NCBI GenBank assembly: GCA_018238155.1
Contig: JABCTZ010000033.1
Coordinates: forward strand, 44,002 to 108,001
Reading direction: 5' to 3'
DNA from: Candidatus Heimdallarchaeota archaeon
GTDB lineage: Archaea; Asgardarchaeota; Heimdallarchaeia; JABLTI01
DNA length: 64,000 nucleotides
Position numbers and translations under genes: made by a program
Part shown: positions 23,003-56,780 of the stretch, one piece after another
How the letters are laid out: each line of letters starts with the position of its first letter
Numbering within the stretch: the first letter of the stretch is position 1
The notes under the pieces: generated by a model
Databases searched by the model: none
The model's input: only the letters and a program-made list of their open reading frames with translations
What the model was told of the DNA's origin: nothing

Positions 23003-23074
23003 TTATTCAATCCCATAATAATATCCTTTCTGTTTCTGATAACAAATATTACACTTACACATTGTCCATATCTG
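23003..23074 (-). pseudogene. PLD nuclease 3'-end fragment
   Basis: QIWTMCKCNICYQKQKGYYYGIE* versus QIWNGNECKGCYQKQKGYCKGI*. Confidence 0.8.
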
Positions 23075-23221
23075 AATTTGTTGATAGTTCGGCTATATTC
23101 AACATAATCCAGTATCATCTGCTATTTTGATTTTTTCAAAAAAAATCTAAACTCATTAACTGAAATCTTTATTAAACAAGTATAATTCCATTCAAATAGT
23201 AATTATTGAGGTGTTTATTCA

Positions 23222-23401
23222 ATGTCAAATGTTATCCAACGTAATTTTACTGAAAACATGAAATGCCCTATTTGTAATAAAGCGATATCAAGTTTACTTG
23301 AAATATGGAGCACAAGAGAAAGCAAAAAAGCTAATATTGGTGTATCAATAGTTTTTCTATGTCCAAAGTGTAGATCAATCCTAAAAATCGCACGACCTTA
23401 A
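23222..23401 (+). CDS. 59-aa zinc-ribbon microprotein (not in the ORF track)
   Basis: MSNVIQRNFTENMKCPICNKAISSLLEIWSTRESKKANIGVSIVFLCPKCRSILKIARP; GAGGTG RBS; paralog at 56912. Confidence 0.75.
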   Translation: MSNVIQRNFTENMKCPICNKAISSLLEIWSTRESKKANIGVSIVFLCPKCRSILKIARP

Positions 23402-23633
23402 AAAACGTTAATTGTACTTCAATTAAAACACAATTACTTTTTTAATTGCTAAATAATATAATGACATTTTCAATTGTATCTATTTTTGAGAGAGGATATT
23501 GACTTATTTTTGTATGGATGAAAATAAGAATCGAATAGCCATAAAATATCCTTATTTTATTGATGATTTAGTAATAATTGGAAATCATTTCATTAAATGT
23601 TATAAATAGAATAAGTTTAGGGCTTTGTCAAAT

Positions 23634-23912
23634 TAAATTCTTTTGCAATAGCCTTTTGTTTTTGATAGCAACCTTTACACTCATTCCCATTCCAAATCTG
23701 CTCCAACTGATATTCAATAGCAGCAATTACTTTCTGATCAATAGTTATTGTTCCTATCTCGAAATTATTCTTGCCTTTACGAGTTCTTGTACCTATCCCC
23801 GCACCTGTTAGATTTGCTGAAGTAAACCTAAGTTCCATCTACTATGATGGTTTTTATATGCATCTCATAGCAAAATTTGAATTCATTTTTTACAATATTT
23901 TTTCATTTTTGA
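23634..23912 (-). pseudogene. PLD nuclease 3'-half fragment
   Basis: EFKFCYEMHIKTIIVDGT*VYF..ANLTGAGIGTRTRKGKNNFEIG...CKGCYQKQ; 3' part near-identical to 53599..54153, with stops and frameshifts. Confidence 0.92.
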
Positions 23913-24104
23913 TTTATTATTCTTTAAACTAATGCAAAGAGAGTTAGCAAAATGAATAAAACTCTTGAAGGTTTATTCATTAAATAACATTACAAGCTGT
24001 TTTTTTTATGAAGGGTAAACATATGAAGACTTACTGCCATGATAAAATTTAACGAAAATAAAGATTCAAACATTTAAAGGAATAATGATCTTGTTAATTC
24101 TTTT

Positions 24105-24458
24105 GATGTTGAAGTATAAGATTTAATGAAGCATTTCAAAGGGAAAAGTAGAATGTTTGGTGTTTTAGTAGTAAATGAAATATCTTTTCATGTAGAAATA
24201 AGTGAAGTCTTTGGACTTTAAGGAACTAATGGAGAAGGAAAAACAACTACCATTAGAATTTTTACTGGTACACTTTCGCCAATAGAAGGCACAGCTACTG
24301 TTGGTGGATTTGATTTAAAATATGATATTCAAATGATTAGTGTTTGTCCACAAGAATCTGCTAAATACAAATTTCTTTCAGGTATTGGGAATATCAAATT
24401 CTTCGGAAACTTGCATCTGATGCCAAAAGATCAGATAATCGAACGTGGAGAAGAGCTA
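24105..24458 (+). pseudogene. ABC transporter ATP-binding protein fragment
   Basis: ISFHVEISEVFGL*GTNGEGKTTTIRIFTGTLSPIEGTATVGG...VCPQE; Walker A region with in-frame stops. Confidence 0.85.
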
Positions 24459-53507: not shown

Positions 53508-53598
53508 CCATTTAACAAATATATTTGTTATTGATTATATAAGTTTACCAAATAATAACAATCAAAACTACTTTCAAATTCCATACCAGATTAACAAT

Positions 53599-54153
53599 TT
53601 ATATTCCTTTACAATATCCTTTCTGTTTTTGATAGCAACCTTTACACTCATTCCCATTCCAAATTTGCTCCAACTGATATTCAATAGCAGCAATTACTTT
53701 CTGATCAATAGCTATTGTTCCAATCTCGAAATTATTCTTGCCTTTACGAGTTCTTGTACCTATCCCTGCACCTGTTAGATTTGCTGAACCAAAGTACATC
53801 CAAGTTCCATCTACAATGATTACTTTCATATGCAAATTATAACAAAAACGAAAATCGATATTACCAATAGCATTCAATTTTTGATAAAAGGTCTTAGCAT
53901 TCTGGTAGGTCTTTGTTTGTTCATGTGGTGTTAAAATAATTTTGAAATCTACTCCACGTTGACTCATGTGGTATAGTTTCTTTGAAATGGACTCTCCTTC
54001 TTTTGTGTGCTGATTTACCACTATGAAATCATTTGCTTTGGCACTAGTTATCCAAACATATTTTCTTGCTCGAAGTAACCCATTGGTAATAATTTCATCT
54101 ACATTATCTCCATCATTTCCATAGAGCAAATATCCTTGATATTCAATTGACAA
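53599..54153 (-). CDS. PLD-family single-HKD nuclease-like protein, intact copy B
   Basis: NLHMKVIIVDGTWMYFGSANLTGAG; C-terminal CKGC...C. Confidence 0.88.
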   Translation of the reverse strand: MSIEYQGYLLYGNDGDNVDEIITNGLLRARKYVWITSAKANDFIVVNQHTKEGESISKKLYHMSQRGVDFKIILTPHEQTKTYQNAKTFYQKLNAIGNIDFRFCYNLHMKVIIVDGTWMYFGSANLTGAGIGTRTRKGKNNFEIGTIAIDQKVIAAIEYQLEQIWNGNECKGCYQKQKGYCKGI

Positions 54154-54378
54154 TTATGGCACCATCATATTATTGTTAGCATTCCTATTTATACATCAGT
54201 ATTAAGCCAGTTTTTTGTAAAAAAATTTGAAAAGCTTAGGGTTTTTCTCTAATTATACATCATCTACTTTCTTCCAAACTAAGGAAAATTGGAAGATTGA
54301 TATTTCCAATAAAATAGTTAAAAATTAAAGGCAGAGATTCTGCCAAGAAAATAGAAAAAGAAAAAAGATAGATTTACT

Positions 54379-56271
54379 TTACCAGCCGATTTTACGTTTC
54401 TGTAGAGATTGAGCAAAACCTGCCAAGTCCTTCATACTAGGAGCACTAGTTGTAGCATTCACTGAATAAGTTTCTACTCTGTTTTGTTTTAAAGAGAATA
54501 ATAAACCATCTAGTTTTATTGCTCCAAGACGATCTAACAAGGTACTTTCTTTTCCGTCTACTAATTCATCATAGGAACTATCTAATTTCTTGTGCTCTTC
54601 TTTAATTACTTTAGCCAATAATTTGTAGCCCTTTTCTTCTGAAATTTGCTGTGCTTCCTCAAATAATTTTCTTGCAGCAGTTAAATCAGGTTTAAGTAAA
54701 GCTAGTTTACCTCTAAGCAGATAAGTTTTAGCAAGTAATGAAAAAGCATTTTGTGATTCACCAATATCCAATAGCTTCTTTGTAAGTAAATCTAGTTCAT
54801 CTAAAATATCTTCATTACCCAGTATCTTCATTTCAATGATCAATAATTCACATAAATTAAATATGCCCTCAACGATTCGTTCATAATCGATAACTTCACC
54901 GTTGATAATTTCACCAATTAAGTCTTTAGCTTTGACAAATCGTCCCAAAGTAGTATGTAAAGATTCAAAAGATAATTCATCAGAAGTATTTTGTTCTGCT
55001 TGTAAAACAAAAGCTTGTGCTAATTTAGTATACATAATGACGTATTTATTCTCTTCTATATCAGAGATCTCATTTAGTTTATCCAAATATTCCTTTGCTT
55101 GTTTCATTGAATTTGTTTCTAACGAGATTCTGATCAACTGATAAACACTTTGACTTATAGCAAGATTATTTTTGTTTTTCTCAGAATACTTAACACTTCT
55201 ATCAAAGAATTGTTTTGCTTTTCCAAAATCCATTTTTGTGAAAGAAACTTCTCCCAATGCACTGAATACTTGTGAAAGTTTTTGTGGATTATCAAAGTTA
55301 TCAAAAATTTTCTTAGCCTTATTTAGATATTCAAGTGAGGAATCTAATTCACCTTTCCTTTGGTAGAATTTTCCAAAATTTAGATACATAGTTCCAGTTA
55401 AATTCTCGTTTTTCAATTCTATATAATATGGTAAAGCTTTTTGATAATATTCAAAGGAAAGATCAAGTTCACCTTTTTGAGAATAGAGGTGACCGGTATT
55501 ACTCAATTGTTTGGCAATGTTTTCTTTGTTATCAGTCTTTTGCATTAATTCAAGACCCTTTTTGAAATGTTCGAGTGCTTTATCTAAGTCCCCACTAGTT
55601 GCATAAACTATACCGGTATTATGTAAGACATTGCTTAGTGCAATAATATTTCCCGTGCTCTCCCATATCTCTAACGTTTTATTAAAACACTTTAAAGCTT
55701 CAGTAGGCTTTCCTGAATAGTTATATGTATTGCCCATATGATTATATATACTACCAATTAAAGAATTATCATCGATAGTCTCGGCAATTATTAATCCCTC
55801 TTTAAGGAGTTTTATTGCTTGATCCAGTTTTCCTTCTTTTTCAGCTAAACGCCTTCCTTTAATTAATATTATTCGTATTTTGATTTGAGCTTTTTGGGTT
55901 GCATTTAATTTTCTCTCATTTACTAATACTTTTTCTAAGGATTGTAATTGTTTAAAGCCATCCTTTTTTGAGCTTGAACCAAGTTTTATTGATATCAGTA
56001 ATATTCTAGCACTATAATATTGAAAAATTAGTCCTGCGTCTTTACTTTGTGAAATAATCGAATTAGCGAGTACAATATTTTCTTTTTTACGACCTCTCAT
56101 GCTATTTATTTTAGTTAATAATAATGAAAGATCAATCTTCTTTTCAATACTAAAATCAAATGTTTTCAAATTCGATTCAGTATACTCTTGTGCTTCTTCC
56201 AGCAGTCCTTTTGTTAACAATTCCCTACTTTTATCTAAAATATTTTGTTCTGTAGTCATGAGTAATAACAC
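54379..56271 (-). CDS. TPR protein, paralog B (likely start 56259)
   Basis: Closely similar to paralog A throughout; ends QKRKIGW. Confidence 0.9.
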   Translation of the reverse strand: MLLLMTTEQNILDKSRELLTKGLLEEAQEYTESNLKTFDFSIEKKIDLSLLLTKINSMRGRKKENIVLANSIISQSKDAGLIFQYYSARILLISIKLGSSSKKDGFKQLQSLEKVLVNERKLNATQKAQIKIRIILIKGRRLAEKEGKLDQAIKLLKEGLIIAETIDDNSLIGSIYNHMGNTYNYSGKPTEALKCFNKTLEIWESTGNIIALSNVLHNTGIVYATSGDLDKALEHFKKGLELMQKTDNKENIAKQLSNTGHLYSQKGELDLSFEYYQKALPYYIELKNENLTGTMYLNFGKFYQRKGELDSSLEYLNKAKKIFDNFDNPQKLSQVFSALGEVSFTKMDFGKAKQFFDRSVKYSEKNKNNLAISQSVYQLIRISLETNSMKQAKEYLDKLNEISDIEENKYVIMYTKLAQAFVLQAEQNTSDELSFESLHTTLGRFVKAKDLIGEIINGEVIDYERIVEGIFNLCELLIIEMKILGNEDILDELDLLTKKLLDIGESQNAFSLLAKTYLLRGKLALLKPDLTAARKLFEEAQQISEEKGYKLLAKVIKEEHKKLDSSYDELVDGKESTLLDRLGAIKLDGLLFSLKQNRVETYSVNATTSAPSMKDLAGFAQSLQKRKIGW

Positions 56272-56608
56272 CTATCTTTTTGTCGGAATTTTTCCTTTAT
56301 ATTATATATCTATTAATTATTTAAAGAAATTCATTGAGGACAAAAAGTAAAAAAAATGATTAGACAGCTTTCCCTTCAATTCTAAAAAAAAATGAAGAAA
56401 TCCTATGAAATTGCTTTAGTAATTTTTTACAAATAAAGAACAACCTTTAGATTTACAGCAAATTCACAGTTGGCTTTCTAAATAGTTGCTTTTTTTCTTT
56501 GTTCTCGTTGAAAAAAATTTAACGTCACTTTCAGATAAACATTCTAATTCTGCAATCATATTTTTAATTCGCATTTCTTGGTTTGAAATACTTATAAGAT
56601 CCACTAAT

Positions 56609-56780
56609 TTTTTGATAACAATCTTTACATTCACCGTAAAACAATATTTGTTGGAATTGATATTCCATAGCTTCGATTGTTTTCTGATCTAAGGTCATCG
56701 TTTCAACTTAGATATTTTTTACCTTTTCACGCTCTTGAACTTATTCCTGCACTAGTAAGATATGCTGAGCAAAAATAAAT
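56609..56780 (-). pseudogene. PLD nuclease 3'-half fragment
   Basis: IYFCSAYLTSAGISSRA*KGKNI*VETMTLDQKTIEAMEYQFQQILFYGECKDCYQK. Confidence 0.88.

Follow-up and report, generated by a model that had tools for sequence, protein, structure and literature searches.

The window, as we call the whole 64,000-nt stretch of Heimdallarchaeota DNA analysed here, contains two intact genes for single-HKD PLD-family proteins and ten fragments of such genes, with all 12 on the minus strand. Both intact genes belong to PF13091 (PLDc_2; E 1.5e-14 and 2.8e-16, above the curated Pfam cut-off). The copies, fragments and intervening cargo are listed below, with the supporting searches in brackets.

23005-23086, minus: orphan tail, aa 159-184 (tblastn, nhmmer)
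23631-23911, minus: C-terminal PLD remnant, aa 90-182, frameshifted, 89% identical to PLD2 (tblastn, nhmmer)
27539-28414, no strand assigned: cassette D, truncated DUF6036-type gene at 27728-28075
28415-28452, minus: minimal orphan tail, first codon Cys173 (nhmmer, junction alignment)
28453-29258, minus: cassette behind PLD1, 109-aa gene and PIN-domain gene, VapBC-like pair (Pfam)
29259-29816, minus: PLD1, intact PLD gene, 185 aa, gamma clade, 56% identical to PLD2
33141-33309, minus: mid to C-terminal PLD fragment, aa 107-165, frameshifted, lacking the final tail (tblastn, alignment)
34582-34770, minus: N-terminal PLD fragment, aa 1-58, beta clade (tblastn E 5e-23, alignment)
44833-44885, minus: orphan tail (nhmmer E 1e-4 genome-wide, core profile E 1.6e-7)
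44886-49149, no strand assigned: cassette with orphan EutA-like gene (47012-49093), 119-aa gene and HEPN gene (45323-45742) (Pfam)
49150-49209, minus: decayed orphan tail (nhmmer E 0.027, blastn)
49210-51444, plus: cassette C, 597-aa ORF at 49364-51157 with no family match (Pfam)
51445-51494, minus: decayed orphan tail (nhmmer E 0.01 genome-wide)
51495-52339, plus: cassette B, toxin-antitoxin pair HEPN (51610-51999) and MNT (51965-52324) (Pfam)
52340-52418, minus: well-preserved orphan tail, about 79 nt (nhmmer E 3e-16 genome-wide, tblastn)
52419-53598, no strand assigned: cassette A, split DUF6036-type nucleotidyltransferase gene (53039-53335 and 52772-52996), 64-aa ORF and 86-aa partner gene (52495-52755, plus strand)
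53599-54153, minus: PLD2, intact PLD gene, 184 aa, beta clade (PF13091; chimera junction)
54154-56593, minus: cassette with TPR protein gene, 630 aa, at 54379-56271 (Pfam)
56594-56780, minus: decayed, frameshifted C-terminal remnant, aa 119-181, adjoining the syntenic MFS gene (tblastn E 1e-9, nhmmer)
57242-58579, plus: MFS transporter gene, conserved neighbour upstream of the array

Using tblastn against the window and the whole 4.08 Mb genome, we recovered minus-strand fragments at 23009-23086, 23641-23911, 33141-33309, 34582-34770, 44832-44912, 52345-52407 and 56600-56780, and no PLD-like sequence anywhere in the assembly outside the array locus. The search missed three fragments reported in the earlier note (28411-28455, 49142-49207 and 51443-51492). 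These were found by a nucleotide profile built from five strong tails and run against the whole genome, at 28415-28452 (E 0.15), 49151-49209 (E 0.027) and 51445-51494 (E 0.01). Ten of the 12 best genome-wide profile matches lie on the minus strand within the array's 34 kb, and the remaining two come from a single repeated gene with no relation to PLD, each copy at the end of a contig. The number, orientation and, within a few bases, the coordinates given in that note were thus reproduced, and its shortest fragments were recovered by the profile. As it had stated, eight of the ten fragments carry the tail C-Y-Q-K-x-K-G-Y-C-x-G-I, whole or in part. This tail is native coding sequence of the PLD gene. 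The fragments at 34582-34770 and 33141-33309 are products of other events within the gene and not of tail landing; the 3′ end of an FG-GAP gene overlaps the latter.

The cargo named earlier for the junctions was identified by Pfam as HEPN-MNT, PIN, TPR, LVIVD and FG-GAP surface proteins, EutA, metallophosphoesterase and MFS. Cassettes are only 0.8-4 kb long, with one to three genes each. The TPR gene has paralogues at 19911-21836, 60731-62611 and 62784-63953. The MFS gene also adjoins the PLD gene in G005, G010 and L072, and lies between two PLD copies in L021. At some cargo junctions no tail is detectable; examples are the 10-kb stretch 34770-44833, the metallophosphoesterase gene (22220-22822) and the point where cassette A ends in L072.

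Among related Heimdall-group MAGs, every sufficiently long contig with this PLD clade displays the gene followed by co-oriented orphan tails. The same layout was seen in G009, G005, G010, G004, JACCLD01, ERZ272, HMA_bin2.96, several JGI contigs and L072; independent assemblies share the architecture of the window. About 60 tail matches across 18 loci are all on the strand of the PLD gene, mostly downstream of an intact copy, and the claimed co-orientation therefore extends well beyond our locus. N-terminal fragments occur elsewhere too (L013 at 2407 and 5710; L021 at 713). The copies inside one array fall into different clades, their nearer relatives being copies in other genomes; co-resident copies are neither sister genes nor recent tandem duplicates, so the array cannot stem from one or two tandem duplications.

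Cassettes recur across genomes in changed order. The window reads PLD2-A-B-C and G009 reads PLD-C-B (84% identity), while cassette D stands behind a PLD gene or tail in four genomes (window, G010, G005 and G004). Cassette B is 84% identical to L013 8726-9574, and cassette C, likewise at 84%, to L013 6734-8782; there cassette C comes first after the PLD gene. Unrelated cassettes have thus changed place between genomes. In two cases the exchange could be mapped. Window positions 53637-52431, comprising the last 39 nt of PLD2 (53599-53637) and the next 1.2 kb with cassette A, are 98.0% identical to L072 6570-7777, the cassette third in that array, whereas the PLD bodies are 83% identical; identity switches directly 5′ of the Cys173 codon. 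The PLD gene of G004 is identical on its left to the G005 PLD gene at 8681 and on its right to the G005 tail at 17030 with cassette D, and the switch lies within AAAGGATATTG. Both mapped exchanges fall within the gene's final 39 nt.

The tail copies bordering cassettes correspond to the last 39-85 bases of the gene. A common breakpoint of the fragments was found in part: six or seven independent orphan tails start within about 3 nt of one position, at TTGCTATC, while left ends otherwise vary from 39 to about 280 nt. Together with the N-terminal fragments, this variation means that not every event was a clean exchange at one site. Compared with the best intact gene, the right 33 nt of orphan tails average 82% identity and the left 30 nt 56%; the same halves in intact genes give 94% and 89%. 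The excess on the right fits renewal from an intact gene at each exchange. The tails are direct repeats, with no hairpin, folded site or conserved dyad.

We interpret the locus as an array that has grown by cassette accretion at the 3′ end of a chromosomal gene for a PLD nuclease (probability about 0.78). The earlier proposal that this 3′ end is a recurring landing site, giving an integron-like array devoid of attC, is supported by the cargo turnover, the permuted order and the two crossovers, which equally support it as a site of exchange. A unit would comprise a duplicate of the gene's final 39 to about 85 nt, reaching to the stop codon, with cargo behind it. When it enters at the tail of the gene, the tail it brings would complete the gene and the resident tail would be displaced downstream as a non-coding orphan. 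Repeated rounds would leave a single intact gene and then co-oriented orphan tails between unrelated cargo, and units could later leave, re-enter or swap between strains via recombination within the tail. The reaction would be of the Campbell type, through a circular tail-plus-cargo intermediate; we infer both circle and enzyme.

The contig of the window encodes no tyrosine or serine recombinase, HUH transposase, Cas1 or TnpB. PF00589 has no match on C29 or on the array contigs of G009, G005 and G004, PF00239 has none in the whole genome, and all Y1 HUH, Cas1 and TnpB matches are on other contigs. A search of the flanks for a recombinase had been proposed; among the genomes examined, not one has an integrase linked to its array. 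As the enzyme of the accretion array we tentatively favour host homologous recombination acting on the short tail homology, at slightly under even odds. An unlinked site-specific recombinase acting in trans and a PLD-dependent reaction seem equally unlikely, and something else a little more so.

Single-HKD PLD proteins such as Nuc and Zucchini are dimeric nucleases. The best structural matches of the array PLD are NucT (6ehi), Nuc (1byr) and Zucchini (4gel/4ggj), all non-specific nucleases with about 17-21% identity to it. They have in common one HKD motif and the PLDc_2 fold; however, the array protein differs in having no signal peptide and a family-specific C-terminal CxxC...C tail. Residues C104, C170, C173 and C181 are invariant down to 30%-identical bacterial homologues, and the Cys cluster of the protein is reminiscent of the zinc site of Zucchini.

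A homodimeric PLD could itself drive the process, nicking or cutting the 3′ end of its own gene, either with rejoining via a covalent phosphohistidine intermediate or with staggered nicks about 39 nt apart, whose fill-in would duplicate the tail at the insertion of foreign DNA, much like that of a CRISPR repeat when a spacer is inserted. The first capture of a new cassette would thereby be explained as well. The PLD is the sole nucleic-acid enzyme consistently linked to the arrays, its genes are intact with invariant catalytic residues, and, having neither signal peptide nor membrane segment, it is probably cytoplasmic. The common start (±3 nt) and stop-codon end of the six or seven minimal tails resemble a fixed staggered cut. 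The distant bacterial homologues are single-copy, with no fragments nearby and no arrays, so the trait tracks this clade. Moreover, HKD enzymes are capable of transesterification on DNA, as BfiI does via a covalent intermediate (PMC2475615), and a poxvirus PLD-family 'nicking-joining enzyme' is among the PDB sequence matches. However, no result supported the earlier suggestion that the nuclease makes the breaks: the protein has no DNA-recognition domain besides the catalytic fold and the Cys cluster, one of the two mapped crossovers sits deep within the block (AAAGGATATTG), away from the shared left edge, tail lengths differ, and several contigs with the gene (L028 and L046 among them) have no tail within 1.7-3.4 kb downstream. 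We consider such an engine improbable.

Somewhat less probable still is the accretion of integrase-bearing islands, in which the PLD 3′ end would be the attB of an element with its own tyrosine integrase and attP, the integrase genes having since been deleted or lying off the assembled contigs, and cis-mobilisable remnants being left. Tandem site-specific integration is known to leave, as its signature, partial copies of the target gene's 3′ end in one orientation, as with tRNA/tmRNA-targeting islands and with ICESt1/ICESt3 and CIMEs at fda. The genus also has several tyrosine recombinases (about 450-550 aa) on other contigs, and G010 has one on the array contig itself, at its end and 63 kb away from the array. 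Against this, no cassette at about 18 loci contains an integrase, the cassettes are too modest in size and gene number, profile searches detected no tail-like sequence beside either of the two integrase genes of the window's genome, and the PLD gene and tail core are both absent from IMG/VR viral contigs.

Local duplication of a PLD block a few times, with deletions leaving fragments and no mobile cassette, is very improbable: the window does hold segmental duplications (TPR genes at 72-82% identity, HEPN-MNT pairs, and blocks 27539-27799/52469-52729 and 33537-33761/51588-51814), but the mixed clades, permuted order, L072 chimera and G004/G005 crossover contradict it, and random deletion does not predict 3′ tails far outnumbering 5′ fragments.

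The accretion array can be compared with sedentary chromosomal integrons (IntI, attI, attC; for example in Vibrio), where long arrays likewise string together small cassettes unrelated to one another. There, too, a recombination-site-like sequence repeated in one orientation bounds every cassette, insertion is beside a fixed anchor gene, relatives differ in cassette order, and toxin-antitoxin cassettes and genes with no known function abound. By this analogy, the many toxin-antitoxin cassettes of the PLD locus probably stabilise its array, a role established for those of chromosomal integrons. Unlike integrons, the PLD locus has no IntI or any tyrosine recombinase, it repeats the anchor gene's coding 3′ end in place of a folded attC, its cargo lies on both strands, hence no Pc-driven co-oriented array, and several intact anchor genes may occur in one array. 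At ICESt1/ICESt3, CIMEs and tRNA/tmRNA islands, the target 3′ end is similarly duplicated per integration with the gene staying intact, and co-oriented partial copies flank successive inserts, some without an integrase; PLD-array elements, in contrast, lack it in all genomes examined, and their units of one to three genes recur in different orders. In rhs, cdiA and mafB orphan toxin/immunity arrays, a main gene is followed by its own co-oriented 3′ fragments split by small cargo, and homologous recombination with no dedicated recombinase is thought to produce them. There, however, the displaced fragment is a variable toxin tip with its immunity gene as cargo, whereas here it is the invariant last 12 codons and stop, and the cargo is functionally unlinked to the anchor. 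The pdif modules of Acinetobacter plasmids (XerC/XerD) are likewise small, often toxin-antitoxin, bounded by short sites and shuffled by a recombinase not encoded in the module, but pdif sites are 28-bp dyad-symmetric Xer sites whose orientation alternates.

Orthologous orphan tails of close genome pairs were compared by eye (n=3). One pair was identical and in the other two the cores diverge at least as much as the flanks, so individual orphan tails are probably not under strong purifying selection. Within the genes, synonymous sites are only marginally more conserved in the last 12 codons than in the gene body (0.66 vs 0.54, p 0.046).

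Both intact genes at this locus encode single-HKD PLD proteins, which passed the curated cut-offs of PF13091 and PF00614. Using both proteins as tblastn queries, we recovered seven further significant pieces in the window, without exception on the minus strand, and no PLD-like match beyond the array locus on any of the 46 contigs of the genome (4.08 Mb). Three fragments (28411-28455, 49142-49207 and 51443-51492) were missed because they are too short for tblastn; all were recovered by a nucleotide profile built from five strong tails and run against both strands of the whole genome. 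By tail we mean the last 39 to ~85 nt of the PLD gene up to its stop codon, by orphan tail such a copy without the gene, and by cassette the cargo between tails.

Features of the window referred to by name
29259-29816, minus strand, intact PLD gene (PLD1)
53599-54153, minus strand, intact PLD gene (PLD2)
52419-53598, cassette A
51495-52339, cassette B, HEPN-MNT
49210-51444, cassette C, 597-aa ORF
27539-28414, cassette D

Ten of the 12 best profile matches genome-wide lie on the minus strand of these 34 kb. The other two, at the ends of contigs C42 and C11, were rejected as tails, as they represent one unrelated repeated gene. These contig ends (C42:40048-40647 and C11:136053-136453) are 97 % identical over 402 nt, and the repeated gene probably broke the assembly there. 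The probability that even five weak matches would fall by chance on one 34 kb strand in a search space of 8.2 Mb is negligible. The co-oriented remnants described in the earlier note were thus confirmed by both searches and are restricted to this locus. In the alignment of all eleven 3′ pieces there is a common core terminating at the stop codon, and the 3′ tail is present in eight of the ten fragments, as originally counted. A more sensitive 45-nt core profile revealed no more tails in the window.

The same PLD occurs in six of ten same-genus genomes, several of them with multiple co-oriented pieces per contig, and the pattern was also found on further genome and metagenome contigs; the evidence base consists entirely of MAGs and metagenome contigs. 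Across 18 loci, all of the ~60 tail matches lie on the PLD strand.

PLD arrays outside the window
Related genome G009, contig C25: two N-terminal fragments, one intact PLD gene and four tails downstream of the intact gene
Related genome G005, contig C47: two intact PLD genes and four tails
Related genome G010, contig C5: one intact PLD gene, a pseudogene, two tails and an N-terminal fragment
930 kb NCBI Heimdall contig (L021): four intact PLD genes and one fragment within 14 kb
More distant clade (64 % identity): an intact PLD gene with three tails

The MFS gene adjoining the array of the window also adjoins a PLD gene in G005, G010 and an 11.8 kb public contig (L072), and from this conserved neighbour we conclude that the array is part of the chromosome, at a conserved position. 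The Arf-like gene found beyond the distal end of the window array has its G009 orthologue on a contig other than that of the G009 array.

The cassettes themselves have moved between relatives. The 597-aa ORF (window 49150-51201) and HEPN-MNT (51560-52409) match G009 8782-6734 and 9574-8726, respectively, both at 84 %. Behind PLD2 of the window the order is cassette A, HEPN-MNT and the 597-aa ORF; behind the G009 gene the 597-aa ORF comes first and HEPN-MNT second. Cassette D (window 27601-28355) was found directly 3′ of a PLD gene or tail in G010, G005 and G004, with tail and cargo contiguous in each context. This differing order and the recurrence of cassette D in three genomes bear out the expected turnover of cargo between PLD remnants.

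Two exchanges could be mapped inside the tail. The first came from L072, which was found by aligning public contigs (Logan contigs from four runs, at most 0.11 of the sampled words) to the window. The body of its PLD gene is 83 % identical to PLD2, and window 53637-52431 is 98.0 % identical to L072 6570-7777. In L072 this block, which opens with a tail of the minimal 39 nt, is the third array unit; its counterpart in the window is joined directly to the intact gene, and the identity switches immediately 5′ of the Cys173 codon. In the second case, the PLD of G004 is identical to one G005 PLD as far as AAAGGATATTG, and past this point it is identical to another G005 tail with its cassette D. Together with the cassette reordering, these exchanges support the proposal that the 3′ end of the PLD gene is a recurring landing site.

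The edges of the tails are also informative. The left edge of six or seven independent orphan tails falls at the same TTGCTATC within ~3 nt, and other orphan tails are ~55, ~70 or up to 280 nt long. Identity of orphan tails to the best intact gene is 82 % over the right 33 nt and 56 % over the left 30 nt, and the corresponding values among intact genes are 94 % and 89 %. Such preservation of the right part is expected if an intact gene under selection supplies the sequence right of the crossover anew at each exchange. Synonymous sites in the final 12 codons show only a marginal rise in conservation.

The process of cassette movement is documented by these comparisons, and the candidates for its catalyst are host homologous recombination, an unlinked recombinase and the PLD enzyme. 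We favour host homologous recombination, which would drive the exchange on the short homology of the tails; the one feature that it explains poorly is that the minimal tails repeatedly share a sharp left edge. An unlinked recombinase is a rival, and our searches for such enzymes gave hits only away from the arrays. The search for an integrase linked to the arrays was negative: PF00589 is present in this genome on contigs C8 and C19 only, and there is none on the array contigs of G009, G005 and G004. PF00239 is absent from this genome, and Y1 HUH, Cas1 and TnpB have matches on other contigs only. No recurrent recombinase was found among the clustered cargo ORFs of 18 loci from 16 genomes or assemblies, and a search of IMG/VR viral contigs gave no match to the PLD gene or the tail core.

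It is also conceivable, though we regard it as unlikely, that this is a new gene-capture system with the PLD nuclease as its catalytic core. The HKD enzyme would act on the DNA of its own last 12 codons, either by cutting alone or by cutting and rejoining via a phosphohistidine intermediate, and each capture would duplicate the 39-nt site, giving a recombinase-free ′PLD integron′. A staggered cut followed by fill-in would explain the sharp left edge of the minimal tails as well as the initial capture of a new cassette. There is a chemical precedent in BfiI, an HKD enzyme performing transesterification on DNA via a covalent intermediate (PMC2475615).

Three other explanations were rejected. Tandem duplication does not account for the arrays, since in the PLD tree, which has three clades, array-mates belong to different clades and are nearer to copies in other genomes. 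A PLD-carrying element inserting into resident PLD genes, as the main process, predicts equal numbers of 5′ and 3′ fragments, and 3′ tails are far commoner. The tail is not a repeat that invaded the PLD gene, because the cysteines of its CxxC...C segment are invariant even in distant bacterial homologues.

Compared with known systems, the PLD array is a variant of accretion and integron-like arrays in an Asgard lineage. As in integrons, each cassette is bounded by a co-oriented site and the order varies between relatives. However, integrons have an IntI-type tyrosine recombinase gene next to the array, and none was found on the array contigs of this genome, G009, G005 and G004. Their attC sites are imperfect inverted repeats folding as single-stranded hairpins, whereas six tails folded as single-stranded DNA formed no hairpin beyond shuffled controls (z -0.96 to +0.71). 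By eye, the core holds no conserved dyad or dif-like site, and the ATATT...AATAT dyad of PLD2 is not kept in other copies. Integron cassettes are promoterless and co-oriented behind a common promoter, whereas the cargo ORFs here lie on both strands. Tandem accretion of integrative elements likewise leaves the target gene intact with direct repeats of its 3′ end flanking the inserts, but no insert in the window or the loci searched, all from incomplete assemblies, encodes a cognate integrase. In rhs/cdiA orphan cassette arrays the displaced 3′ fragments are variable toxin domains, each with an immunity gene, whereas the PLD tails encode the invariant last 12 codons and the cargo is heterogeneous. 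Our literature search for PLD-tail arrays found no description of them.

The locus bears on how Heimdall-group archaea, which among known lineages are most closely related to eukaryotes, take up foreign genes. It is a concrete lineage-wide platform where unrelated genes, including toxin-antitoxin pairs, surface proteins, enzymes and defence-like genes, accumulate and reshuffle behind one anchor gene, and it works without an integron integrase or attC sites. Because two mapped natural exchanges delimit a short site of 39 nt, the mechanism is directly testable. If host recombination suffices, this would be a simple and general way to build gene islands; a requirement for the PLD enzyme would place it in a new class of DNA-rearranging enzymes, and a true ′PLD integron′ would be a new gene-capture system in the archaeal lineage closest to eukaryotes.

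Regarding the PLD protein, all 28 aligned sequences share H108, K110, D115, G122, S123 and N125, which form the HxK(x)4D motif and the downstream GSxN segment. In the family alignment C104, C170, C173, C181 and the HKD residues are invariant even in ~30 %-identity homologues from Myxococcales and other bacteria, so the CxxC...C segment at the C-terminus belongs to the ancestral protein; this segment is probably a metal site. The bacterial homologues are single-copy, and no fragments were found near them. The AF2 model is confident (pLDDT 87), shows the PLD fold of ~150-200 residues expected for the single-HKD nuclease branch and resembles solved HKD nucleases, with NucT 6ehi as the top Foldseek hit (E 6e-9, TM 0.66-0.76), along with Nuc 1byr and Zucchini. 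Among solved structures, those nearest in sequence are of a bacterial PLD, the PLD3/PLD4 exonucleases, NucT and a poxvirus nicking-joining enzyme. Judging from its family, the product is a putative nuclease acting as a homodimer with one active site. Identity with DISARM DrmC or Dpd DpdK was not indicated, as the NCBIfam models gave 26-34 bits for DrmC (cut-off 133) and 25-30 for DpdK (cut-off 100), both far too low, and PADLOC matches were weak only.

The N-terminal and mid-gene PLD fragments are the record of other events. The 12-mer CATCTACAATGA occurs at window 33288-33299, 34617-34628 and 53808-53819. Its first two copies flank a 1.3 kb insert between the N- and C-terminal pieces of one PLD copy, and the third corresponds to the homologous I-I-V-D-G codons of PLD2. 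Since the split copy also lacks ~aa 59-106, it went through a microhomology deletion, an insertion or the two combined, and the tail site had no part in this. An 893-aa FG-GAP/TSP3 surface protein gene (30474-33155, plus strand) terminates inside the PLD fragment 33141-33309, on its antisense strand, so its last codons and stop (33141-33155) come from PLD-derived DNA. In the G009 array locus (L013 5710-6660) and in L021 (713-1653), an intact gamma-clade PLD is preceded, 40-50 nt upstream, by a beta-clade N-terminal PLD fragment. This fragment covers aa 1 to ~120, stops just after the HKD motif and is annotated as a 133-aa gene (P0033), with homologues of similar length (P0034-P0036).

Among the clustered ORFs of the 18 loci, the most widespread cargo is a toxin-antitoxin-like pair of a DUF6036/AbiEii-like nucleotidyltransferase (~190 aa) and a small partner (~72-86 aa). 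It was found in eight of the 16 genomes or assemblies, usually directly behind a PLD gene or tail; in the window the larger gene is broken in both copies.

Nucleotidyltransferase and partner pair
Locus L015: 11986-12769
Locus L022: 12038-12827
Public contig L072: 6872-7713
Window: 52495-53335 and 27728-28075

At some cargo junctions a tail is missing. The array matches its flanks in base composition, and Rfam and tRNA scans of the window gave no match. At L021 8222-9044 versus L014 5238-5287, a ~720-nt block is present or absent between two close genomes; a ~50-nt stretch matches both of its edges, making this an indel at a direct repeat and not at a PLD tail.

Four genes for TPR paralogues of ~630 aa (19911-21836, 54379-56271, 60731-62611 and 62784-63953; 72-82 % nucleotide identity) are present in the window, two of them within the array, following PLD remnants, and the other two beyond the MFS gene as far as the contig end, so the array may extend past the assembled contig. 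An EutA-like gene (47012-49093, Pfam E 4e-135) has an N-terminal extension of ~215 aa, and eutB and eutC are absent from the window. In L021, two Nmad3/Nmad2 pairs in opposite orientation (11900-15519 and 17592-20540) lie on either side of one PLD copy and are followed by a 1531-aa NERD-NACHT gene; this cargo looks like defence or DNA-modification genes. Within the array of the window, a 526-aa CN_hydrolase protein (34917-36497) has the architecture of an Lnt-like apolipoprotein N-acyltransferase, which is unusual in an archaeon.
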